Source: Squalus acanthias
Taxonomy: Eukaryota
DNA: 64,000 nt
Direction of reading: 5' to 3'
Assembly (NCBI GenBank): GCA_030390025.1
Contig: CM059432.1
Location: 85,562,001-85,626,000, forward strand
Below are positions 28,315 to 64,000 of the stretch, in pieces. How positions within the stretch are numbered: the stretch's first letter is position 1; every line of letters starts with the position of its first letter. Position numbers and translations under genes: made by a program. The notes beneath the pieces are model-generated. The model was not told the origin of the DNA and searched no databases. It worked only from the letters and a program-made list of their open reading frames with translations.

Positions 28315-29492
28315 ATGGGGGCTGTACTGGCAGTCCCGCTCGTGCTCGAGTATCTTAGGGAGAGGGAGCGGAGGCAGCGAAGAAGACGAGAAGATGCATG
28401 CAGAGGATGGAGGAGGAGGGCGAGGAGGGCTCTCAACAGGAGGCCTTACCCTCCTAATGTCTTTCGTGAGAACTTCTCTTATATCCACTTAAATAAGGAG
28501 CAGTGTATTAGAAGGCTCCGCCTCAATAAGGAGGTGGTCACAGAGCTCTGCCACCTCCTGCAATCAGACTTGCAGCCTGAGAGCAAGGCGAACACGGCTC
28601 ACCCAGTGGCAGTCAAGGTCACCTCAATTTCTTTGCCAGCGGATCCTTCCAGTCTGCAGCAGGAGACATAGCTAACATCTCACAGTTCGCCGTCCATCAC
28701 TGCATCTGGGAGTTCACTAAGGCTCTCTACACCAGGAGAAGGTACTACGTTTTCTTCTCTCTGAGCAGAGAGAAGCAGGACAAGAGCGCATGTGGCTTTG
28801 CGAGGATCGTGGACTTCCCCTTGGTGCAGGGCGCCATCAACTGCACCCACGTGGCTTTGCGGGTGCCGCATACCAGTCCTGAGATCTTCCGTAACCGCAA
28901 AGGCTACCACTCACTTAATGTGCAGTTGGTGTGCAACCACGCCCAGCTATTCCTGATGGTCAATGTCCACTATCCTGGCAGCAGCCATGATGCCTTCATC
29001 CTGCATCGGTCTGGTGTGCCAGAAATCTTCCAAACACCACATGAAACTTGAGGGTGGCTGCTCGGAGACAAGGGCTATCCGCTCTACACCTGGCTCATGA
29101 CTCCCCTCCGCAACCCCAACACTCGTGCCCAGCACTCATATAATGAGAGCCATGCTTCCACCAGGAACATCATCGAGCAGACCATCGGGCTACTGAAGCA
29201 ACGGTTCCGCTGCCTTGACTGCTCGGGAGAAGCCCTCCAGTAAATGCCGGAGCGGGTGTCTCATTTCATGGTGGTCTGCTACATGCTTCACAACTTGGCC
29301 ATCATGAGGACACAGCCCTTGCCAGCAGGGATTGCGGGACCACCTCAGAAGGAGGACGAGGGAGAGGAGGAGAAGGAGGAAGAGGAAGCTGAGCAAGAGG
29401 AAGAGGACAAAGATAAAGGGAGGAGGCAGGCAGCCAATCCCCCTTCCGGACAAGCTGTCCGTGAATGCCTCATCAGACACCGATTCCAATGA
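28315..29492 (+). pseudogene. HARBI1-type DDE transposase, frameshifted
   Basis: [71 protein letters not shown]; stops present. Confidence 0.9.
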
Positions 29493-31420: not shown

Positions 31421-31698
31421 TTAAGTCATCCTGGTGTGAGGCTGGAGGTCTGTTTGGAGGACGTGGCAGAGTTCTGTGGCCACCACCTTGGTGATGTGGA
31501 GCCATCTAATACACTGCTCCTCGCTTAATTGAAGGTAGGAGAAGTGCTGTCGGAATATCCTCGGAGGGTAAGGCCTCCTGGTGAGAGCCCTGATGTCCCT
31601 CCTCATCCCTCTGTGCACATGTTCCCGTATTTCTGACTGCTTACGCTCCCTCCGCCGTAGATCCTGGAGGGCAAGGTGGCATGCCAGTACAACCCCCA
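31421..31698 (-). pseudogene. 5' fragment of a second HARBI1-type transposase
   Basis: MGVVLAC...RRPYPPRIFRQHFSYLQLSEEQCIRWLHITKVVATELCH. Confidence 0.85.
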
Positions 31699-32406
31699 TT
31701 AATGTTGCCAAATGTAGCAGTTTGAATCTTTGAACAATAAATGTAGTCACTTTGCACTTGCCAGAAGACTGCTGATAAAAAAGAAGCTTGAAATTACTCA
31801 TACAAACTCATTCACTGGGTGAAACTGACAAGAAACCACTGAAACTAACCTGCCCTGACAGCTGTGAGTAATTAATGCTAATGCCTTTAAATAATGTCGC
31901 TGGAGCCGGCTTCCTGCAGCTGTGCGCCAGCTCTCCCTGTCGCTGTCTGGTCGAGGTGCAAAGGTAATTGGCGACAATGAATTCTCCAGATCAGGCGCCA
32001 AGTGAGTGTTGCACGCTCGCTGACATCATGATCTGCCTGGCATTGAAGTCCCCGATGGCGCAACAGGGGTGGCGGATTTGCCTCGTCCGGCGCTACTGCA
32101 TCAGCGCCCCGTTACCGCCCTCTGCAGGCGCTAACCTACCGAATTTTTCCCCCTAAGAATCTGGCTTTAGCAGGAATTCTAGAAAACCGTAGTCACTTCA
32201 TGTCAGATATTCCTGTATTCCTACCATAGACATAAATAGAGATTTTAAAAACAACTTTTCTGAACTCCTTTGCACATATATGGGGCAAATACTGTACAAT
32301 TTTTGTTTCAGCTGAATAACAATACAGCAATATAAATCGATTGTATTCAAGCGCGCGTTCAGAGAGAAAATAAAACTATTTTGGTAATAGAATGAGACGG
32401 GAATAG

Positions 32407-32909: not shown

Positions 32910-35900
32910 GAAACATAGACACATAGAAGATAGGAGCAGGAGTAGGCCATTTGGCCACTCGAGCCTGATCCGCCATTTAATGAGATCATGGCTGATCATC
33001 CAAATTCAGTACCCTGTCCCTGCTTTCTCCCCATATCCCTTGATCCCTTTAGCCTTAAGAAATATATCTATCTCCTTCTTGAATATATTTAATGAATTGG
33101 CCTCAACTGCCTTGTGTGGTAGAGAATTCCACAGGATCACCACTCTCTGGGTGAAGAAATTCCTCCTCATCTCAGTCTTAAATGGCTTACCCCTTATCCT
33201 TAGACTGTGACCCCTGGTTCCGGACTCCCCCGCCATCGGGAACATCCTTCCTGCATCTAGTCTGTCTAGTCCTGTTAGAATGTTATAAGTTTCAATGAGA
33301 TCCCCTCTCATTCTTCTAAACTCTAGCGAATATAAGCCTAATCGACCCAATCTCTCCTCATACGTCATTCCTGCCATCCCAGGTATCAGTCTGGTGAATC
33401 TTGGCTGCACTCTCTCCATGGCAAGAACATCCTTCCTCAGATAAGGCGACCAAAACTGCACACAATACCCAAGGTGTGGTCTCACCAAGGTCCTGTACAA
33501 CTGCAGCAAGACATCCTTGCTCCTGCACTCGAATCCTCTCGCAAGAAGGCCAACATAACATTTGCCTTCTTAACCACCTGCTGCACCTGCATGCTTACCT
33601 TCAGCGACTGGTGCACAAGGACACCCAGGTCTCGTTGCACTTCCCCTTTTCCCAATCTATTGCCGTTCAGATAATAATCTGTCTTCCTGTTTTTGCCACC
33701 GAAGTGGATAACTTCGCATTTATCCACATTATACTGCATTTGCCATGCATCCGCCCAATCACCCAACCTGTCCAAATCATACTGGAGTTTCTCTGCATCC
33801 TCCTCACAGCACACACGCCCACCCAGCTTTGTGTCGTCTGCAAACTTGGAGATATTACATCTAGTTCCCTCGTCTAGATCATTAATATATATTGTGAATA
33901 GCTGGGGTCCCAGCACCGATCCCTGCGGTACCCCACTAGTCACTGCCTGCCACTCGGAAAAAGACCCGTTTATTCCAACTCTTTGCTTCCTGTCTGCCAA
34001 CCAGTTCTCTATCCAAGACAGTACCTTACCCCCAATCCCATGTGTTTTAACTTTGCATGCTAATCTCTTATGCGGGACCTTATCGAAAGCCTTCTCTGAA
34101 AGTCCAAATACACCACATCCACTGGTTCTCCCTTATCTATCCTACCAGTTACATCCTCAAAAAATTCCAGTAGATTAGTCAAGCATGATTTACCTTTTGT
34201 AAATCCATGTTGACTTTGTTCGATCCTGTCACTGTTTTCCAAGTGCTCTGCTATTACATCTTTTATAATGGACTCTAGCATTTTCCCCACTACCGATGTC
34301 AGGCTTACCGATCTATAATTCCCCGTTTTCTCTCTACCACCTTTTTTAAATAGTGGGGTTACATTAGCTATCCTCCAATCCATGGGAACTGTTCCAGAGT
34401 CTATAGAATTTTGGAAGATGACCCCAGCAATGCATCTACTATTTCTAGGGCCACCTCCTTAAGTACCCTAGGATGTAGATTATCAGGCCCTGGGGATTTA
34501 TTGGCCTTCAATCCCGTCAATTTCCCTAACACCATTTCCCTACAAATACTGATTTCATTTAATTCCTCCCTCTCATTAAACTCTATGTTCCCCGACATCT
34601 CTGGGAGGTTATTTGTGTCCTCCTTTGTGAAGACAGAACCAAAGTATGTATTTAATTGGTCTGCCATTTCTTTGTTCCCCATTATAAATTCCCCTGATTC
34701 TGACTGCAAGGGAGCTATGCTTGACTTCACCAATCTTTTTCTCTTCACATATCTATAGAAGCTTTTACAGTCAGTTTTTATGTTCACTGCAAGCTTACTC
34801 TCATAATCTATTTCCCCCCTCTTAATTAATCCCTTTGTCCTCCTTTGCTGAATCCTAAATTGCTCCCAATCCTCAGGTTTGCTGCTTTTTCTGGCCAAAT
34901 TATATGTACTCTCCTTGGATCTTACGCTATCCCTAATTTCACTTGTTAGCCACGGTTGAGTCACCTTTTTTGTTTTATTTTTATGCCAAACAGGGATGAA
35001 CAAATTCTGTAGTTCATCCATGCGATCTTTAAATGTCTGCCATTGCCTATCCACCGTCAACCCTTTAAGTAACGTTCCCCAATCCATCCTAGCTAACTCG
35101 TGCCTCATACCATCGTAGTTTCCTTTATTTAAATTCAGGACCCTAGTCTCTGAGTCAACTACTTCACTCTCCATCTTAATGAAGAATTCTATCATATTAT
35201 GATCGCTCCTCCCCAAGGGGCCTCGCACAACAAGATTGCTAATTAATCCTTTCCCATTACATAATACCCAGTCTAAGATGGCCTGATCGCTAGTTGGTTC
35301 CTCGACATATTAGTCCAGGAAACCATCCCGTTTTCACTCTAGGAATTCCTCCTCCACAGTATTGTTACTAATTTGGTTAGTCCAATCTATATGTAGATTA
35401 AAGTCACCCATGATAACTGTTGTGCCCTTATTGCACGCATCTCTAATTTCCCGTTTAATGCCATCCCCAACCTCAGCATTACTGTTTGGGGGTCTGTATA
35501 CAACTCCCACTAACGTTTTCTGCCCCTTGGTATTTCTCAGCTCTGCCCATACAGATTCCACATCATCAGAGCTAATATCCTTCCTTACTATTGTGTTAAT
35601 CTCTTTAACCAGCAATGCGACCCCACTTCCTTTTCCTTTTTTCCTGTCCTTCCTGAATATTGAATACCCCTGGATGTTGAATTCCCAATCTTGGTCACCC
35701 TGGAGCCATGTCTCCGTAATCCCAATTATATCATATCTGTTTACATCTATTTGTGCAGCTAATTCATCCACCTTATTACGAATGCTCCTCGCATTAAGAC
35801 ACAAAGCCTTCAGGCTTGATTTTTTAACACTCATAGTCCTTTTAGAATTATTATTTACTGTGGCCCTGTTTGATTTACACCCTTGATTTCTCTGCCTTCC

Positions 35901-37287
35901 ACTTTTGCTTTTCTCCTTCCTGTCTTTTATTTCTATCCTTGCTTCCCTTTCCTCTGTCTCCCTGCACAGGTTCCCAACCCCCTGCCATTTTAGTTTAAAC
36001 CCTCCCCAACAGCACTAGCAAACACTCCCCCTTGGACATCGGTTCCGGTCCCGCCCAGGTGCAAACCGTCCAGTTTGTACTGGTCCCACCTCCCCCAGAA
36101 TTGGTTCCAATGTCCCAGGAATTTGAATCCCTCCCCCTTGCACCATTCCTCTACCCACGTATTCATCTGAAATATCCTTCTATTTCTACTCTGACTAGCA
36201 CGTGGCACTGGTAGCAATCCTGAGATTACTACCTTTGAGGTCCAATTTTTTAATTTACCTCCTAACTCCCTATATTCAGCTTTTAGAACCTCATCCCGTT
36301 TTTTACCTATATCGTTGGTACCTATATGCACCATGACAACTGTCTGTTCACCCTCCCCCTCCAGAATACCCTGCAGCCGGCCCGAGACATCCTTGACCCT
36401 TGCACCAGGTTGGCAACATACCATCCTGGAGTCTCATTTGCGGCCACAGAAACGCCTATCTATTCCCCTTATAATAGAATCCCCTATCACTATAGCTCTC
36501 CCGCTCTTTTTCCTCCCGTCCTGTGCAGCAGGACCACCCATGGTGCCAGGAAGTTGGCTGCTGCTACCTTCCCCCGATAAGCCATCTCCCTCAACAATAT
36601 CCAAAGTGGTATATCTGTTTGAAAGGGGGATGGCCATAGGGGACCCCTGCACTACCTGCCTGCGCCTACTACTCTGCCTGGTGGTCACCCATTCCCTTCC
36701 TGCCTGTGCAGCCTTTACCTGCGGTGTGACCAACTCCCTAAACGTGCTATCCACGATGTCCTTAGCATCGTGAATGCTCCAGTATGTATCCATTCGCAGC
36801 TCCAGCGCCGCAATGCGGTCTGCCAGTAGCTGCAGCTGGATACACTTCCCGCACACATGATCGTCAGGGACACAGGAAGTGTCCCTGATTTCCCACATAG
36901 TGCAGGAGGAGCATGCCATGGGGCCGAGCTGTGCTGCCATGACTTACCCTTTAATTAATTCAAATTAAATTAAATCAAATCAATACCACTAATTACACTA
37001 CAATTAAATGATATACTCAAGGGCCCTTGTTTACTAGCACTCCCCGCTACACAACAGAGACCCTAGAAACTATAAACCACAAAAATTAAGTTTGGAAAAA
37101 AGCGAGAAAGAGAGAAATACTCATCAACCAATCACTTACCTGCTTTCTGGTGACGTCACACTTCAATTACTTTTTACTTCTCTCTGCTGCCACCGGTGAG
37201 TCTGGGCCGCTCTCTCTCCCCGCTCTTTAATTCCTCGCTCTCCGCGCTCAGTCTCCACCCAGGGCCGCTCTCGCTGCTGCCGCCGGT
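32910..37287 (-). mobile_element. Full-length CR1 LINE, inactivated
   Basis: GC-rich 5' UTR, ORF1 35990-36940, ORF2 (APE + RT) ~33006-35989 with frameshifts, 3' microsatellite tail. Confidence 0.95.
35990..36940 (-). pseudogene. CR1 ORF1 (Zn finger + SGNH esterase) with a premature TGA at 36434
   Basis: CxxC..CxxC, IGDSII, HIGTND, DGLHL; CGA in the intact copy at 60674 is TGA here. Confidence 0.92.
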
Positions 37288-38845: not shown

Positions 38846-41800
38846 GAATCATAGAATGGTTACAGCACGGAAGAAGGCCATTTGGCCCGTCGAGCCCGTG
38901 CCAGCTCTCTGCAAGAGCACTTCAGCTAGTCCCACTCCCCTGCCCTTTCTCCATAGCCCTGCAAACTTTTTTCCTTCAGGTACTTATCCAACTCCCTTTT
39001 GAATGCCATGATTGAGTCTGCCTCCACCACCCTTTCATTCCACTCGCTGAAAAAAAAGTTTTCCCTCATGTCGCCTTTGGTTCATCTGCAATCACCTTAA
39101 ATCTGTGTCCTCTGGTTCTCGACCCTTCTGCCAATAGGAACAGTTTCTCTCTATCTATTCTGTCCAGACCCCTCATGATTTTGAACACCTCTATCAAATC
39201 TCTTCTCAATCTTCTCTGCTCCAAGGAGAACAACCCCAGTTTTTCCAGTCTATCCACATAACTGAAGTCCCTCATCCCTGGAATCATTCTTGTAAATCTT
39301 TTCTGCACCCTCTCTAAGGCCTTCACATCCTTCCTAAAGTGCGGTGCCCAGAATTGGACACAATACTCCAGTTGAGGCCGAACCAGTGTTTTATACAGGT
39401 TCATCATAATTTCCACGCTTTTGTACTCTATACCTCTATTCATGAAGCCCAGGATCCTGTAAGCTTTTTTAACTGCTTTCTCAACCTGCCCTGCCACCAT
39501 CAACGATTTGTGCACATATACCCCTAGGTCTCTCTGTTCATGCACCCCCTTTAGGATTGTACCCTTTAGTTTATATTTCCTCTCTTCCTTCTTTCTACCA
39601 AAATGTATCACATCGCACTTTTCTGCATTAAATTTAATCTGCCACGTGTCTGCCCATTCCACCAGCCTGTCTATTTCCTCTTGAAGTCTATCACTATTCT
39701 CCTCACTGTTCACTATACTTCCAAGTTTTGTGTCATCTGCAAATTTTGAAATTGTGCTCTGTACACCCACATCCAAGTCATTAATATATATCAAGAAAAA
39801 CAGTGGTCCTAGTACCGACCCCTGGGGAACACCACTTTATACCTTCCTTCAGTCCGTAAAACAACTGTTCTCTGCTACTCTCTGGGGGAGAAATTCAGTA
39901 TCGCCCCATTTGGGGCGCAATTATCGGCCGGGCGCAAAGATTAGCGCCTGGCACTAATTATCGCCACCGACTGCAAACTTGACTTTTATCGCCCCTGGAG
40001 GTGATTGGAGCGCTAAATCAGGCGCTTCACACCTGTCTTAAGGCGCAAAGGCCGAGGAGCGAGGCGCTACCTCAGAGCGCTGGCGAAGCTCATGTAATGT
40101 CAGTCAGCAATGGAACACACACACAATGGCACGGGCCAGTTCTTAAAGGGGATGGTTAATCTCACTTTCCATTCACATCCTGCTCATTGCAGCCTTGAAT
40201 CTCGGCCTGGAGAGACCTGCACATCAAATCTGCTGGAAAGAACAATGGAGAGTACCAGGCAAAGAGCTCAGAGTGCAGCCCCCACAGTCTCTTCTAAATC
40301 GATACAAGGAATGGCAAATCAAAATGAACCTGCAAAGTACTGCTCAGTACCCAAAACTCCTTCACACAACGTTGAAACTCTCCAGAAGTCTCTCTCTCTC
40401 TCTCTCAGAATGCGTAGTTCAAAAATGGCACCAACAATAAAAGGCAGGAAGCGGTCACCTTTAAATAGCGCTCCCCCTTTCCCTTCATGACTGCAGAACG
40501 CTCCACTCAAACTGTCGTTGCTAGCGTCAGGCGGTAAGGCAGGGGGAGCCACTCAATATCCGCTCCGGGGCGATACTGGGGCGTTGCGCACTCGACTGAC
40601 GTCACGATCTGCCGGCGCAGGAGATCGTGGCGGTAGTGTTTAGCGCCGCCGCAAAATGTCTAGTTAATTTCGCGAGCGGCGCAAACTTCGCCCCGCCTGG
40701 GCGCTAGATGCTTTGCGCCCCATTAGCGCCCTCTTAAGGCGCTAATGGGAGGCGCAACCAACTGAATTTTTCTGTTTCCTATCACTTAGCCAATTTTGTA
40801 TGCATGCTGCCACTGTCCTTTTTATTCCATGGGCTTCAACTTTGTGGCACTTTGTTGAATGCCTTTTGGAAATCCATGTACGCCACGTCAACCACATTGC
40901 CCTCATCAACACTCTCTGTTACCTCATCAAAAAACTGAATCAAATTGGTTCAACACGATTTACCTTTAACAAATCCGTTCTGGCTTTCCGTAATTATTCC
41001 ACACTTGTCCAAGTGACTGTTAATTTTGTTCCTGATTATTGTTTCTGAAAGCTTCTCCACTACCAAGGTTAAACTGATTGGCCTGCAATTGTTGGGTTTA
41101 TCTTTACACCTTTATTGAACAAGGGTGTAACATTTGCAGTTCTCCAGTCCTCTGGCAACACCCCTGTTTCTAAGGAGGATTGGAAAAGTATGGCCAGTAC
41201 CTCCGCGATTTCTTCCTTCACTTCCCTCAGCGTCCAAGGATGCATCCCATCTGGTCCTGGTGACTTATCTACTTTAAGTACAGCCAGCCTTTCTAGTACC
41301 ACCCCTTTATCAATTTTTATCCTATCCAGTATCTCCTCTACCTCCCCCTTCACTATATTTATGGCAGCATCTTCTTCCTTGGTGAAGACCGATGCAAAGT
41401 ACTCATTTAGCACCTCAGCCATACCCTCTACCTCCATGCGTAGGTCTCTTTTTTGGTCCCTACTCGGCCCCACCCCTCCTCTTACTACCCGTTTACTATT
41501 TATATGCTTATAGAAGACTTTTGGATTACCTGTGGGTTTTTTTTTTCACTTCTCCTCTGAACTTTCTATATTTTGCCTGATTCTCAGATGTATTCTCGAC
41601 CTGACATCTGTCATACACGCTCTTTTTCTGCTTCATCTTACTTTCTATCTCTTTCGTCATCCAGGGAGCGCGAACTTTAGTTACCCTACCTTTCCCCCTC
41701 GTGGGAATGTAGCTTGACTGTACCCGAACTATTTCCTTGTTAAAAGCAGCCCTTTGTTCGATTACAGCTTTGCCTGTCAATCTTTGATTCCAATTTACCT

Positions 41801-50530: not shown

Positions 50531-51996
50531 GGCTAGTGGGGATCAGGCAGGCCACAGTTAGCGGGGAGGGGGCAGTGCTGGCGGCTAGATAACATGCTCA
50601 GTAATGGGCTTATGGGTGAAAAACTCTTCGTAGGTGAGGGGGCTGGGTAGGAAACTGTCCTGATTGCAGCCAGACTGCTTCACTGAGGGAGATTGCAGGT
50701 GGGAAACTGTCTCAGTGGGGAGGCGGGTATTGCGAGCCACAGCATAGGCACTAGGGTTTCCTCGAACAAATACCTGCTCAGCAACCACACAGCATGGGGA
50801 GCTTCACCTAACCAAGGCGGCCATAATAAAGGGGGCCAGCGAGTCCGGAGAGAAGTGCAGGGAAGCTGGACTTCAGCTGTGGCAGCTGCACCAAAAGTTG
50901 AGCACTGACCTGAAAGTGCCAACGCCAAGTCAAAGCTGGGGGTGCAGATCGGGAGAGCAGGGTGGTCCACTGACTGTCCTGGGGGTTAAAGCATGATACG
51001 CAAATGGATGACAGGCAAGGCAACTTCGCAGAGGGGCTTGCAAAAATATAATAGTGGGCCAGGATATGGGTCTAATATAAGAGGCCGAATAGGAAACTGG
51101 ATGAGAAGTTGAAAAATGTTCTGAGCAGCAAATGTCTTTATAGCTAAGGAAAGACAAAATTAAAAATATCCTTGTTGTCAAAGGAGAGTGGGGGTGGGGT
51201 CAATTAATGTCCTGCACATGGAATAAATCAAAATTTATTGGTTTACCACAAACTGATACTTACCCCAGTTTGTAAGCTTCTGTGATCCAGTAGAAGCGTT
51301 GCTATAGTGGTCAGGGATGGAAAGACAATGTAGACTCTTTTGGACAGTTGACTATTGCATGTGTTTTATAAAACATGTAACATGACAGCCACAGTACCAG
51401 CCACCTGCATAACAGGTACTACAGGAATGTTGTGATTCACCCAGCTGGTTAGAAAAGAAGGCTGCAAAATTCGGCTCTGTAGCACCCGTTGTTTGGGCGC
51501 TACGGGTGCTGATTCGGGTCCAAAATGGTGTCCGTGGCACACGCGCACACTTGTGGTACTGGCTGCGCTAGACACCATCTTAGCGCGGGCGCAGGGAACG
51601 TGCACCGAAAGTATACAGGGTAGGCAAATCGTGACATCAATCAGCAGGCAACACTCATTTGATGCCAGTGTTTTCATTTTGGAGCTCAACGCTCCAGCTA
51701 ACGCCCTATCTTAAACACATACAGTTGAACACGCCTTCAGCAGCAGGTAGGACCCGCCCGCCAGCGCTATTTAAAGGGATCATCAACTACTTACAGGTTA
51801 GTTGCTGATTGATTTCTACTGGCGGTTGCTGTGTTTGTAGAGATTGATTTCTACTGGCGGTTGCTGTGTTTGTAGAAGTGTTTGGTGCTTTGTACAGTTA
51901 TTTAAAGTTGCTAAAGTCCAGAGAGAGTGGTCTGGCAGGTGCTGAAGGACTTTGTCCTGACTTCAAGGATTCTGCACAGACCACTTACTTCAAGAC

Positions 51997-53107
51997 ATGG
52001 GTGCAGTAGTATGCAGTCCACTTGGCCTACAGCATGACAGGGAGAATGAGCAGAGGCAATACAGAGCAGGTCAAGCTGCTGGCAGAGGGAGGAGGGGGAG
52101 AAGGACACTCAGCAGGAGGCCATATCTGCCCAGGGAGTTCAGGGAGCAATTCTCCTTCCTGAACCTCAGCGAGGAACACTGTGTCAGAAGTCTGCGCTTC
52201 ACCAAGGATGTCCTCACTAAAATCTGTCACCTCCTGCAGCTACAACAGCAACCTCAGAGCTGGGCGAGGACCGCTTTGCTAGTGGCTGTGAAGGTCACGG
52301 TTGCCATGAACTTTAATGCTTCGGGCTCCTTCCAGGCTGGAGCAGGAGATATTTGCAACATCTCCCAGTTTGCCGTGCACCGTGGCATAAGAGAGGTAAT
52401 TGAGTCTCTGTATTCAAAGAGAGCTGAATACATTTCCTTCTCTCTAGCCAGAGAACAGCAGGCGGAGCGAGCACGTGGCTTCGCGAAGATTGCAGGCTTC
52501 CCCATGGTGCAGGGTGCCATTGACTACACGCACGTTGCTTTGTGGGCACTGCATCTCCAGTCTGAGATGTACCGCAACCAAAAGGGATTCCACTCCCTCA
52601 GTATCCAGCTGGTGTGCGACCATACTCAGCGAACCTTACAGGTCAATGCCCCATATCTTGACAGCAGTCATAATGCCTTAGTTCTGCAGCAGTCCGCTGT
52701 CCCATCTGCATTTGAGCCACCACAACAAACCAGAGGGTGGCTACCGGGAGACAAGGGCTATCCATTAACAACATGGCTCAAGACTCCGGTGCGCAATCCA
52801 CACACAAGTGGGCAGCATTCATACAACAAAACATCATTGAGCACGCCATTGGCATGCTGAAGCAACGCTTCCCCTGCCTGGACTGTTCTGGAGGAGCCCT
52901 GCAGTACTCGGCAGAGCAGGTGTTGAGATTCGCGGTGGTCTGCTGCATGCTGCAAAACCTCGCCACTACAGCATACGGTGATCAGCTGAGGAGCAGGAGG
53001 AGGGGGAGGAAGAGGAGGAGAAGGAGGCAGAAGGAAGGAGGCAACCCAGACAGTTCCTTTCTGGCCAGGCTGTCCATGACTGACTCATCCAGCTGCGCTA
53101 CGAGTAA
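51997..53107 (+). pseudogene. HARBI1-type DDE transposase, frameshifted near 52830
   Basis: ASGSFQ, GAIDYTHV, NQKGFHSLSIQLVCD, GDKGYP, IIEHAIGMLKQRF; acidic tail. Confidence 0.92.
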
Positions 53108-53279
53108 ACGCAACCCCAATTCCACATTCACCAACAGTCCCACAGCTTACCTTCCCTCTGTCACTGACCATCACAGCGTCCACTTGAGCGCAATGCAAAG
53201 GTAAAAGCCAGCACAAAATAAACATTCCAAACCAAATTTATAAATGAAATCATGCCATATTGCATACAATCATAAACAA

Positions 53280-57104: not shown

Positions 57105-59800
57105 CAGGTCCTACAGGCAGATTTTAGTGAGCTAGGAAAGAGATTAAAAAGCAAGAACTCAAAGGTAGTAATCTCTGGATTACTCCCGGTGCCATGCACG
57201 AGTGAGTATAGAAATAGGAGGATAGAGCAGATGAATGCGTGGCTGGAGAGATGGTACAGGAGGGAGGGCTTCAGATTCCTGGATCATTGGGGCCGGTTCT
57301 GGGGAGGTGGGACCTGTTCAGGCCGGATGGGTTGCACCTCAACAGAGCCGGTATCAATATCCTCATGGGGAGGTTTGCTAGTGCTGTTGGGGAGGGTTTA
57401 AACTATGTTGGCAGGGGGATGGGCACCAGGATGCACCATTAGAAAGGAGAAACAATGGGCACAAAGGATTGGGAGAGAAGGATAGCACTAAAGTAAGAAA
57501 TAGTATTAGGTGGCGTCAGATTAATAGAGAACACAGGATGATCTAAGATAGATTTACAGTGTGTGTATGTGAATGCATGAAGCATGGTAAACAAGGTTGG
57601 TGAGCTGCAGGCGCAAATAGCCACATGGGAATACGATGTCGTGGCAATGACGGAGAACTGGCTCAAAAAAAGGCAGGATTGGGTATTAAATATTCCTGGA
57701 TATAGGGTGTTCAGGAAAGATAGGGAAGGAAAGAAAGGAGGCGGGGTGGCAGTATTGGTTAAGGAGAATGTGCTGGAGAGGGAGGATGTCCTGGAGGGGT
57801 CAAGGACAGAATCTATATGGCTAGAGTTAAGAAATAATAGAGGTGCCATTACACTACTAGGTGTATTCTATAGGCCACCAACTAGTGGGAAGAATAAGGA
57901 GGAGCAAATTTGCAGAGAAATTACAGAGAGATGCAAGAACTATATAGTGATAATGCGGGACTTTAACTATCCTAATATAGACTGGGATAGTAATAGTGTA
58001 AACAGCAGGGAGGGGGAAGAATTTCTGAAGTGTGTTCAGGAGAACTTTCTTGATCCGTACTTTACCGGCCCAACGAGGAAGGAGGCATTGCAGGATCTGG
58101 TTCTGGGGAATGAGGTAGGTCAAGTGGAGCAAGTGTCAGTAGGTGAACATTTGGGAACAGTGATCATAAGATTCAGATTAGCTATGAAAAAGAAACGGAG
58201 AAATCTAGAGTAAAAATACTTAATTGGAGGAAGGCCAATTTCAGTGGCATGAGAACAGATCTGGCCGGGGTAAATTGGAATCAAAGATTGGCAGGCAAAA
58301 TTGTAGTGGAACAATGGGCTGCCTTTAAAGAGGAAATCGTTTCGGTACAGTCGAGGTATATTCCCAGTAGGGGGAAAGGTAGGGCAACTAAAGTCAGAGC
58401 ACCCTGGATGACGAAAGAGATAGAGAGTAAGATGAAGCAGAAAAAGAGTATAACAGATGTTAGGTCGAGAATACATCTGAGAATCAGGCTAAATATAGAA
58501 AGTTCAGAGGAGAAGTGAAAAAGAAAATGAGAGGGCCAAAGAGAGGGTATGAGAATAGAATGGCAGCTTACATAAAAGGTCCTCCAAAAGTCTTCTATAG
58601 GCATATAAATAGTAAACGGGTTGTAAGAGGAGGGGTGGGGCTGATTAAGGATCAAAAAGGAGACCTACGCATGCAGGCAGAGGGTATGGCTGAGGTACTA
58701 AATGAGTACTTTGCATCTGTCTTCACCAAGGAAGAAGATACTGCCATAGACATAGTGAAGGAGGAGGTAGAGGAGATACTTGATGGGATAAAAATTGATA
58801 AAGACGAGGTACTAGAAAGGCTAGCTGTACTTAAAGTAGATAAGTCACCAGGACCAGATGGGATGCATCCTTGGACGCTGAGGGAAGTAAAGGAAGAAAT
58901 CGCGGAGGTACTGGCCATAATCTTCCAATCCTCCTTAGAAACGGGGGTGATGCCAGAGGACTGGAGAATTGCAAATGTTACACCCTTGTTCAATAAAGGT
59001 TGTAAAGATAAGCCCAGCCACTATAGACCAGCCAATTTAACTTTGGTAGTGGGGAAGCTTTTAGAAACAATATTCAGGGACAAAATTACAGTCACTTAGA
59101 CAAGTGTGGATTGATTAAGGAAAGCCAACAAAGATTTGTTAAAGGCACATCGTGTTTAACCAACTTGATCGAGTTCTTTGATGTGGTAACAGAGAGGGTT
59201 GATGAGGGCAATTCGGTTGATGTGTACGTGGATTTCCAAAAGGCGTTCGACAAAGTGCCACATAATAGCCTTGCCAGCAAAGTTGAAGCCCATGGAATAA
59301 AAGGAACAGTGGCTGCATGGATACGAATTTGGCTAAGTGACAGGAAACAGAGAGTAGCGGCGAATGGTTGTTTTTCGGACTGGAGGAAGGTGTACAGTGG
59401 TGTTCCCCAGGGGTCAGTTCTAGGACCACTGCTTTTCTTGATATATATTAATGACTTGCATGTGGGTGTACAGGGCACAATTTCAAAATTTGCAGATGAC
59501 GCATAACTTGGAAGTATAGTGAACAGTGAGGAAGAAAGTGATAGACTTCAAGAGGACATAGAGAGGCTGGTGAAATGGGCGGACACGTGGCAGATGAAAT
59601 TTAACGCAGAAAAGTGTGAAGTGATACATTTTGGTAGAAAGAATGAGGAGAGGAAATATAAACTAAAGGGTACAATCCAAAAGGGGGTGCATAAACAGAG
59701 AGACCTAGGGATATATGTGCACAAATCATTGAAGGTGACAGGGCAGGTTGAGAAAGCAGTTAAAAAAGCTTACGGGATCCTGGGCTTCATGAATAGAGGT
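57105..59800 (+). mobile_element. CR1 (ORF1 end + ORF2), interrupted by a Harbinger insertion
   Basis: KVVISGLLP, DGLHL, APE and RT motifs with frameshifts. Confidence 0.92.
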
Positions 59801-60673: not shown

Positions 60674-61624
60674 ATGGCAGCACAGCTCGGCGCCGTGCTA
60701 TGCTCCTCCTGCGCTATGTGGGAAATTGGGGACACTTCCTGTGTCCCTGACGACCATGTGTGCGGGATGTGTATCCAGCTGCAGCTACTGGCAGACCGCA
60801 TTGCGGCGCTGGAGCTGCGAATGGATGCATACTGGAGCATTCGCGATGCTGAGGACCTCGTGGATAGCACGTTTAACCAGTTGGTCACACCGCAGGTAAA
60901 GGCTGCACAGGCAGAAAGAGAATGGGTGACCACCAGGCAGATTAGTAGGCGCAGGCAGGTAGTGCAGGAGTCCCCTGTGGACATCCCCCTCTCAAACAGA
61001 TATACCGCTTTGGATACTGTTGAGAGGGATGGCTTATCAGGGGAAGGCAGCAGCAGCCAACTTCCTGGCACCAGGGGTGGTTCTGCTGCACAGGACGGGA
61101 GGAAAAAGAGGGGTAGAGCTATAGTGATAGGGGATTCTATTGTAAGGGGAATAGATAGGCGTTTCTGCGGCCGCAAACGAGACTCCAGGATGGTGTGTTG
61201 CCTCCCTGGTGCAAGGGTCAAGGATGTCTCAGAGCGGCTGCAAAACATTTTGGAAGGGGAGGGTGAACAGCCAGTTGTCGTGGTGCATATAGGTACCAAC
61301 GATATAGGTAAAAAATGGGATGAGGTCCGAAAAGCTGAATATAGGGAGTTAGGAGATAAATTAAAAAATAGGACCTCAAAGGTAGTAATCTCAGGATTGC
61401 TACCAGTGCCACATGCTAGTCAGAGTAGAAATAGAAGGATATTTCAGATGAATACGTGGCTAGAGGAATGGTGCAAGGGGGAGGGATTCAAATTCCTGGG
61501 ACATTGGAACCGGTTCTGGGGGAGGTGGGACCAGTACAAATCGGACGGTTTGCACCTGGGCAGGACCGGGACCGATGTCCTTGGGGGAGTGTTTGCTAGT
61601 GCTCTGGGGGAGGGTTTAAACTAA
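60674..61624 (+). CDS. CR1 ORF1p (Zn finger, coiled coil, SGNH/GDSL esterase), intact 316 aa
   Basis: CSSC..CGMC, VIGDSIVR, HIGTND, DGLHL. Confidence 0.92.
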   Translation: MAAQLGAVLCSSCAMWEIGDTSCVPDDHVCGMCIQLQLLADRIAALELRMDAYWSIRDAEDLVDSTFNQLVTPQVKAAQAEREWVTTRQISRRRQVVQESPVDIPLSNRYTALDTVERDGLSGEGSSSQLPGTRGGSAAQDGRKKRGRAIVIGDSIVRGIDRRFCGRKRDSRMVCCLPGARVKDVSERLQNILEGEGEQPVVVVHIGTNDIGKKWDEVRKAEYRELGDKLKNRTSKVVISGLLPVPHASQSRNRRIFQMNTWLEEWCKGEGFKFLGHWNRFWGRWDQYKSDGLHLGRTGTDVLGGVFASALGEGLN

Positions 61625-61811
61625 AATGGCAGGGGGTTGGGAACCTGAGCAGGGAGACAGAGGAAAGGGAAACAAGAATAGAAGCAAAAGTCAGGAAGGA
61701 AAAAAACAAAGGTGTCAGTCAGAGAAATCAAGGGTTTAAATCAAACGTGGCCACAGTAAAAAAAAATTCTAAAAGGTCTAAGAGCGTTAAAAAAACAAGC
61801 CTGAAGGCTTT

Positions 61812-62693
61812 GGGGGAGAAATTCAGTATCGCCCCATTTGGGGCGCAATTATCGGCCGGGCGCAAAGATTAGCGCCTGGCACTAATTATCGCCACTGACT
61901 GCAAACTTGACTTTTATCGCCCCTGGAGGTGATTGGAGCGCTAAATCAGGCGCTTCACACCTGTCTTAAGGCGCAAAGGCCGAGGAGCGAGGCGCTACCT
62001 CAGAGCGCTGGCGAAGCTCATGTAATGTCAGTCAGCAATGGAACACACACACAATGGCACGGGCCAGTTCTTAAAGGGGATGGTTAATCTCACTTTCCAT
62101 CCACATCCTGCTAATTGCAGCCTTGAATCTCTGCCTGGAGAGACCTGCACATCAAATCTACTGGAAAGAACAATGGAGAGTACCAGGCAAAGAGCTCAGA
62201 GTGCAGCCCCCACAGTCTCTTTTAAATCGATACAAGGAATGGCAAATCAAAATGAACCTGCAAAGTGCTGCTCAGTACCCAAAACTCCTTCACACAACGT
62301 TGAAACTCTCCAGAAGTCTCTCTCTCTCTCTCTCAGAATGCGTAGTTCAAAAATGGCACCAACAATAAAAGGCAGGAAGCGGTCACCTTTAAATAGCGCT
62401 CCCCCTTACCCTTCATGGCTGCAGAACGCTCCACTCAAACTGTAGTTGCTAGCATCAGGCGGTAAGGCAGGGGGCGCCACTCAATATCCGCTCCGGGGCG
62501 TTGCGCACTCGACTGACGTCACGATCTGCCGGCGCAGGAGATCGTGGCGGTAGTGTTTAGCGCCGCCGCAAAATGTCTCGTTAATTTCGCAAGCGGCGCA
62601 AACTTCGCCGCGCCTGGGCGCGAGATGCTTTGCGCCCCATTAGCACCCTCTTAAGGCGCTAACGGGAGGCGCAACCAACTGAATTTTTCCCCC
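61812..62693 (+). mobile_element. 882-bp Harbinger MITE, copy 2, inserted in CR1 ORF2
   Basis: TIR gggggagaaattcagt / actgaatttttccccc; TSD TTT; empty site gaaggctttgtgtctt seen in the 32910-37287 copy. Confidence 0.95.
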
Positions 62694-64000
62694 TTTGTGT
62701 CTTAATGCGAGGAGCATTCGTAATAAGGTGGATGAATTAGCTGCGCAAATAGAGGTAAACGAATATGATATGATTGGGATTACGGAAACATGGCTCCAGG
62801 GTGACCAAGGCTGGGAACTCAACATACAGGGGTATTCAATATTCAGGAAAGATAGGCAAAAAGGAAAAGGAGGTGGGGTAGCATTGCTGGTTAAAGAGGG
62901 GATTAACACAATTGTAAGGAAGGATATTAGCTCTGATGATGTGGAATCTGTATGGGTAGAACTGAGAAATACCAAGGGGCTGAAAACGCTAGTGGGAGTG
63001 GTGTATAGACCCCCAAACAGTAATACGGAGGTTGGGGATGGCATTAAAAGGGAAATTAGAGAAGCGTGCAATAAGAGCACAGCAGTTATCATGGGCGACT
63101 TTAATCTACATATAGATTGGGCTAACCAAATTAGTAACAATACTGTGGAGGAGGAATTCCTGGAGTGTATACGGGATGGTTTCCTGGACCAATATGTCGA
63201 GGAACCAACTAGAGATCAGGCCATCTTAGACTGGGTATTATGTAATGAGAAAGGATTAATTAGCAATCTTGTTGTGCGAGGCCCCATGGGTTGGAGCGAT
63301 CATAATATGATCGAATTCTTCATTAAGATGGAGAGTGAAGTAGTTGACTCAGAGACTAGGGTCCTGAATTTAAATAAAGGAAACTACGATGGTATGAGGC
63401 GCGAGTTGGGTAGGATTGATTGGGGAATGTTACTCAAAGGGTTGACGGTGGAGAGGCAATGGCAAGCATTCAAAGATCGCATGAATGAACTACAGAATTT
63501 GTTCATCCCAGTTTGGCATAAAAATAAAACAAAAAAGGTGACTCAACCGTGGCTAACAAAGGAAATTAGGGATAGCATAAGATCCAAGGAAAGGACATAT
63601 AAATTGGCCAGAAAAAGCAGAAAACCTGAGGATTGGGAGCAGTATAGGATTCAGCAAAGAAGGACAAAGGGATTAATTAAGAGGGGGAAAATAGAGTATG
63701 AGAGTAAGCTTGCGAGGAACATAAAAACGGACTGTAAAACCTTTTATAGATATGTGAAGAGAAAAAGATTGGTGAAGTCAAGCGTAGGTCCCTTGCAGTC
63801 AGAATCAGGAGAATTTATAATGGGGAACAAAGAAATGGCAGACCAATTAAATACATGCTTTGGTTCTGTCTTCACAAAGGAGAACACAAATAACCTCCCA
63901 GAGATGTCGGGGAACATAGGGTCTAATGAGAAGGAGGAACTGAAAGAAATCAGTATTTGTAGGGAAATAGTGTTAGGGAAATTGACGGGATTGAAGGCCG

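Follow-up and report, generated by a model that had tools for sequence, protein, structure and literature searches.

The ORF1/ORF2 junction of a CR1 element in Squalus acanthias

How LINE retrotransposons translate their second open reading frame (ORF2) is a long-standing question with partial answers for L1 and SART1 only. The question arises at a locus in a stretch of 64,000 nucleotides from Squalus acanthias (GCA_030390025.1, contig CM059432.1, positions 85,562,001 to 85,626,000, forward strand; hereafter the window). Here a LINE, which we take to be CR1 from its architecture, the bird-type likeness of its ORF1 and its 3′ end repeats, has an ORF2 that runs in the −1 frame from the very end of ORF1. 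An earlier note on this DNA had proposed that the two frames are joined by programmed −1 ribosomal frameshifting.

ORF1 of the focal element (60674–61624, plus strand) encodes 316 amino acids from the first ATG and ends in G-L-N-stop. Its translation contains an SGNH esterase (PF13472, E 2.7e-14), its profile matches the solved LINE ORF1 esterase of PDB entry 4c1b (E 8e-39), and its predicted order is N-terminal strands and a long helix, a disordered linker, and a C-terminal SGNH esterase. The closest named shark proteins are 72–75% identical. The junction reads GGT TTA AAC TAA, as described in the earlier note, with the slippery heptamer T_TTA_AAC at 61615–61621 (plus strand) in X_XXY_YYZ phase and the ORF1 stop codon TAA (61622–61624, plus strand) adjoining its 3′ end. 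ORF2 likewise proved to lie in the −1 frame relative to ORF1, reading F-K-L-K-W; its N-terminal linker in this frame (61615–61811, plus strand) contains no ATG. A −1-frame TAG stop codon five codons 5′ of the heptamer (61597–61599, plus strand), shared by 29 of 30 copies of the focal lineage, confines any shift to within about eight codons. A G-run at 61632–61636 (plus strand), which starts at +11 after the heptamer and whose position is conserved in the lineage comparison, is a candidate stimulator.

The focal copy itself is dead. Its ORF2 is broken ahead of the endonuclease by an 882-bp insertion (61812–62693, no strand assigned) with terminal inverted repeats and a TTT target duplication; the remainder of ORF2 (62694–64000, plus strand) encodes the APE endonuclease from the LCLNARS motif (62695 on; PF03372, E 3.8e-12) and continues past the end of the window. 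The claim that the −1 frame is open to LCLNARS without an ATG thus fails for the focal copy, where a stop codon lies 85 codons past the heptamer, but 19 of 30 sister copies are open through APE motif I (codon 67), with a Met before the motif four times in all. The family is young, the best 40 of 2,635 candidates being 99–100% identical over 331 bases. An SGNH esterase ORF1 followed by an APE-containing ORF2 is the architecture of esterase-ORF1 CR1; RT motifs are visible by eye in ORF2 translations, and pairwise ORF2 identities between elements range from 35 to 66%.

The heptamer had also been reported from the two other ORF1 ends in the window, and it was found at both. An uninterrupted sister copy on the minus strand, 92% identical, carries the same heptamer and TAA at 35990–35999 (heptamer 35999–35993) and, as had been pointed out, an ATG at 35834–35832 where the focal copy reads AAG. 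The second, a decayed copy of another subfamily on the plus strand (57397–57406; heptamer 57397–57403), has TAT and hence no stop codon after the heptamer; its relatives mostly have TAA at this position. The word TTTAAAC occurs 16 times in the window, counting both strands, and is therefore ordinary in itself; what is not due to chance is that it keeps one position and one phase relative to the ORF1 stop from lineage to lineage.

The 882-bp insertion is presumably a Harbinger-like MITE, judged by its features. Of 30 young CR1 copies, six, the focal copy included, contain a MITE-like element with inverted ends starting in GGGG and a TTT duplication at one and the same TTT just 5′ of the APE motif; it occurs in both orientations and in different variants, which suggests a strongly preferred MITE target within CR1. 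Harbinger elements are known for such target preferences. MITE-like elements were located at 61812–62693 and 39880–40772 of the window and in loci L001, L003, L005, L006, and L028. Decayed frames at 28581–29051, 31421–31807, and 51961–53204, which look to us like Harbinger/HARBI1-type transposases, are possible autonomous partners of the insertion.

Conservation of the slippery heptamer

Since dead copies merely mirror their source element, lineages rather than copies were compared. The junction survey comprised 226 loci, of which 207 could be anchored by a profile from which the two terminal residues had been removed and 19 had no anchor. A stop codon within four residues of the projected ORF1 end defined 189 junctions; 18 anchored loci, being truncated or broken, were omitted, and a non-LINE match among the 189 junctions (L091) was left out of the lineage set. 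Nine of the nineteen lineages, grouped by hand, come from the focal genome; one is of fish type, seven are of bird type, and two, from metagenome contigs, are of invertebrate type, the labels referring to protein likeness. The copies of S1 and S2 were retrieved with heptamer-containing queries.

T_TTA_AAC was present in 173 of the 189 junctions and was the commonest form in all 17 vertebrate-type lineages. With one real copy representing each of these lineages, position X of the heptamer was T in 17/17 across codons for six amino acids (G, D, A, H, C, and S), the Leu codon was TTA in 17/17, and the Asn codon was AAC in 16/17. Elsewhere TTA accounted for 32 of 257 Leu codons, and seven other conserved Leu columns used 3–6 codons each. 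More than one codon was used in 27 of 28 other conserved columns, the exception being a His column (CAC, 14/14). Four-fold degenerate sites were saturated between shark-, fish-, and bird-type elements (0.21–0.41 identical) and unsaturated among shark lineages (0.45–0.86), so that few comparisons are effectively independent; as ancestry is shared, the lineage counts are not independent of each other. Free variation of the heptamer wobble positions, named in the earlier note as an observation that would speak against frameshifting, was not seen in this comparison.

Two invertebrate-type junctions are known as DNA. L062 reads G_TTA_AAC_TAG, followed by an ORF2 open for 829 codons in the −1 frame, and L063 reads G_GGA_AAC_TAG, with 824 open codons; the heptamers behind K-N, G-F, and F-F protein ends are deduced from protein. 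The ORF1 stop codon is TAA or TAG, never TGA, in 19/19 lineage representatives; TGA would be silent in both frames. Four sequencing runs from related organisms contained no variant at ≥10% in heptamer, stop codon, or G-run, a result given little weight because the 80% likeness filter favours close copies. Scans for DNA of additional lineages yielded none or one weak match in viral contigs (L155, unused), none or one weak bacterial match in genome contigs (L156, unused), and no match in phages.

An X_XXY_YYZ heptamer in 0-frame phase thus lies within the ORF1/ORF2 overlap, and by the codon comparison it is conserved beyond protein need. The junction feature itself is real, and nucleotide-level selection acts on it across a broad LINE branch.

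Reading phase and start codons of ORF2

In all 16 evaluable lineages most copies have APE motif I in the −1 phase, at 14 distinct distances from the stop codon ranging from 95 to 206 nt. If linker lengths were free, and treating them as independent, the chance of such a constant phase would be about (1/3)^13. The representatives were picked for an open −1 frame; their other two frames contain 62 and 92 stop codons over 880 codons.

A conserved in-frame ATG upstream of APE, the other observation that the earlier note had set against frameshifting, is absent. None of the 19 open focal-lineage copies shares the Met of the minus-strand copy (codon 55), at most four have any, and the first Met common to the focal family is codon 90, within APE. 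In lineage S9 the first Met is at codon 255 in all eight copies, past nearly all of APE, and in one S9 element (L231) neither frame is interrupted (316 and 983 codons), so that a start at an AUG would forfeit the endonuclease. An in-frame linker Met occurs in 12 of 16 lineage representatives, scattered over codons 4–63, and is absent before APE in the other four; at a Met rate of 1.8%, about 63% of 55-codon linkers would be expected to hold one, so that the frequency is close to the chance level. The downstream ORF lies in the −1 frame, is open from the heptamer (except in the focal copy, owing to its insertion), and has no conserved start of its own.

Alternatively, ribosomes may terminate at the ORF1 TAA or TAG and resume translation in the −1 frame, either at a nearby AUG or without one, the conserved bases and the G-run then acting as a reinitiation signal. 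With a restart right at the stop, this would account just as well for the constant phase and the open linker. Codon 4, directly after the ORF1 stop, is indeed ATG in three bird-type lineages and GTG in two lineages. There are also precedents (here and below, papers cited by PMC number are cited for the parts available to us): SART1 uses termination-reinitiation at a UAAUG stop-start, 2A skipping being a further route in non-LTR elements (PMC3708506), and for ORF2 of L1 an AUG-independent initiation is assumed (PMC5009743). However, codon 4 is TGG, TGT, AGT, AGG, GCG, AAG, or TCG in the remaining 14 of 19 representatives, and under reinitiation one would not expect a canonical heptamer to be replaced by another together with the matching wobble upstream. 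We consider it an unlikely explanation of the junction as a whole; given the Met at codon 4 of three bird-type lineages, it may serve as a second route in bird lineages. An ATG just after the stop (TAA-A-ATG) was rejected as a start of ORF2, being in the +1 frame, closing after 37 codons, and being lineage-specific.

Bird-, fish-, and invertebrate-type junctions read CTAG and resemble a 3′ splice site, as would suit a spliced or internally initiated RNA from which ORF2 is translated by itself or in which it is linked to ORF1. Most shark lineages, however, show TAA, purines abound in the upstream context, and S9 offers no start for a separate ORF2. Four joints in junction-covering contigs of three runs had no splice-type ends either, a weak argument since the RNA origin of these contigs is guessed. 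It is very improbable that such an RNA accounts for the expression of ORF2.

C-termini of ORF1 proteins

Among 154 homologues ending near the projected ORF1 end, a set rich in bird and shark copies, 120 finish in L-N; named members with this ending come from turtle, monitor lizard, a sturgeon cluster, and birds. A stricter set consisted of the best 150 representatives of 50% clusters; by a profile that stops short of the two terminal residues, 120 of them reach the last helix. In 71 of these 120 representatives the final two residues fit a canonical heptamer and the wobble position upstream of it (background 3.7%), and 78 have such a pair within the last four residues (background 10.2%). As the heptamer rule requires, in 55 of 56 representatives the residue preceding L-N has a codon with T at its end, and that preceding G-N is Q in 10 of 13. 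L-N stands at the protein end from 1 to 15 residues beyond the fold and thus tracks the stop codon, not the structure. The other 42 representatives lack a fitting pair within their last four residues; in about ten of them K-N lies further upstream with a longer tail behind it, and some resemble another clade.

Two proteins bear on the K-N class. P0345 and P0304 are identical at 157 of 162 upstream positions, and P0345 passes from K-K into the −1 reading of the P0304 tail with one mismatch in 14 (at least six in 500 shuffles), reaching APE without a Met; the K-N class thus marks a −1 junction too. The database proteins P0034, P0289, and P0345 continue from ORF1 into the −1 frame at the junction, being copies or gene models in which the predicted fusion is hard-wired. 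In crustacean-type ORF1s, which partly overlap the set of 120, 26 of 32 carry G-N, K-N, G-F, F-F, or a comparable compatible pair among their final four residues (background 8.4%). Esterase-type ORF1 CR1-like elements occur in crustacean-type sequences (L062, L063, P0074–P0091, and P0128–P0147). A shark-type CR1 ORF1 (P0007, 60% identical) is filed at NCBI as a hydrolase of Pseudomonas aeruginosa, probably through host contamination.

The terminal L-N might instead be kept for protein function, with the DNA conservation merely inherited and ORF2 starting at internal AUGs. N317 is invariant in alignment A1, the His column mentioned above provides one other codon-invariant column, and a linker Met is present in 12 of 16 representatives. 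This explanation nevertheless leaves the exclusive use of TTA, the T at X over six amino acids, the drift of L-N with the stop, the switch from L to G or K, and the constant phase unaccounted for; the Met positions are scattered and near the chance rate, and S9 with its first Met at codon 255 largely refutes it. Residues 315–317 also have pLDDT values <50, which argues weakly in the same direction, as termini often do. Selection on the protein end is hence a most doubtful substitute for −1 frameshifting.

The region downstream of the heptamer

The earlier note had suggested that the G-rich segment 3′ of the heptamer could form a stem or a G-quadruplex. No stable stem was predicted in a sister copy of the focal lineage (MFE −6.5, z −0.48), and a quadruplex is weak at best on prediction. 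MFE folding of the region from +5 to +90, in a model without pseudoknots, gave z values of −1.03 to +1.86 in 16 of 18 lineages and of −2.4 and −2.7 in two; a stable stem-loop or pseudoknot 5–9 nt downstream, the second part of a classical bipartite site, was not found, and the 18 lineages share no fold. Three-tier G-quadruplexes were predicted in none of them, four short-loop G3 tracts not being conserved, and weak two-tier ones in 5/18.

The region is purine-rich, with a C content of 6–19%. A run of at least four G starts at +8 to +13, mostly at +11, in all 18 evaluable lineages (background 0.042, 443 of 10,548 windows); a Gly codon retained in the linker of ORF2 could also account for its conservation. 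No long-range partner of the G-run was found at a shared position, the best duplexes differing in location. One stretch rich in C, some 620 nt upstream and among the top five windows in 6 of 14 lineages, was rejected as a partner because it scores poorly in the others and overlaps a conserved peptide motif. The start of the G-run at +8 to +13 exceeds the usual spacer of 5–9 nt, and protein-bound motifs stimulate at longer spacers (PMC7618472, in part); G-quadruplexes stimulate −1 shifting on UUUAAAC with an optimum spacer of 6–8 nt (PMC3919603, in part).

Probable programmed −1 frameshifting in CR1

Taken together, esterase-type CR1 LINEs very probably use programmed −1 ribosomal frameshifting, at the heptamer that ends ORF1, to translate ORF2, which would give an esterase-APE-RT fusion. 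The proposal of such a fusion in the earlier note is supported and withstands both computable refutation tests, on heptamer wobble and on an upstream ATG, and it is from sequence comparison that we infer the frameshift. The heptamer, the phase, and the conservation of a −1 frameshift site are present; the classical downstream fold is absent. The P- and A-site tRNAs would slip in tandem on UUA and AAC, during a pause that may be caused by the adjacent stop codon and the G-run, protein-bound or as a weak G-quadruplex, and not by a classical pseudoknot. A minor ORF1-APE-RT fusion would be made beside abundant free ORF1p, setting the ORF1p:ORF2p ratio and tying RT to ORF1p assembly, as in Gag-Pol. 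The frameshift efficiency may be low, suiting the small amount of RT that a LINE needs. The odds are about even that an entire LINE branch, spanning crustacean-type elements as well as those of sharks, ray-finned fish, turtles, lizards, and birds, produces its RT as such an ORF1-ORF2 fusion, with four or more canonical heptamers that can replace one another and a stimulator without structure, consisting of the adjacent stop and the G-run at about +11.

Frameshifting by −1 is textbook knowledge for viruses and LTR elements, and U_UUA_AAC is the slippery site between ORF1a and ORF1b of coronaviruses. The CR1 junction resembles coronavirus ORF1a/1b and retroviral gag-pro and gag-pol junctions in the heptamer class, the short overlap, the structural-type ORF upstream, and the polymerase ORF in the −1 frame. 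Heptamers shared with this class are U_UUA_AAC and G_GGA_AAC as DNA and, deduced from protein ends, A_AAA_AAC and G_GGU_UUU; the first two are among the four shiftiest heptamers (PMC5009743, in part). In contrast to the viral sites, CR1 is a non-LTR element, has no predicted stem-loop or pseudoknot 5–9 nt downstream, has a G-run at +8 to +13 and a stop codon adjoining the heptamer, and shows no protease that would process the fusion. The G-run is rather reminiscent of protein- or G-quadruplex-stimulated sites, in which a short motif at a fixed distance replaces a stable fold, although in CR1 it is a candidate motif only. In arteriviruses, nsp1beta/PCBP acts on a C-rich motif, and the spacer of cardiovirus 2A is 13–14 nt (PMC7618472, in part).

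Among non-LTR elements, Dictyostelium TRE5-A and TRE3-A need a −1 frameshift for ORF2 according to the figure legend of a review (PMC5911963, in part). They are APE-type elements like CR1, but belong to a different clade and have an unrelated ORF1. In HeT-A, a frameshift occurs within gag (PMC5009743, in part). The combination of esterase ORF1 and APE-RT ORF2 is shared with the CR1 subgroup that has an ORF1 of type IVB (PMC4120745, in part) and with ZfL2-1 and its esterase ORF1p (PMC3905857, in part). Within the Jockey group the esterase ORF1 type is given as vertebrate only in the available part of PMC4120745, whereas crustacean-type relatives were found here too.

A −1 frameshift route for CR1 is apparently unreported within the literature searched. 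Term look-up did not find “frameshift” in PMC3905857, PMC4120745, or PMC3708506, and found it in unrelated uses only in PMC11835228, PMC6609765, PMC5006619, and PMC4255032; the part of PMC5009743 consulted has no mention of CR1. The search, in which no report of a CR1 slippery site was found, did not extend to older subscription papers (the original chicken and turtle CR1) and Repbase entries, in which an earlier remark is possible.

CR1 is a dominant repeat in birds, reptiles, and sharks. If its ORF2 is indeed reached by frameshifting, CR1 ORF2 annotations begin at the wrong place, and the G-run with the adjacent stop would possibly represent a new kind of frameshift stimulator. A membrane role of esterase ORF1p has been proposed (PMC3905857, in part), and the predicted product would be a Gag-Pol-like fusion that tethers the RT to a membrane-binding esterase.
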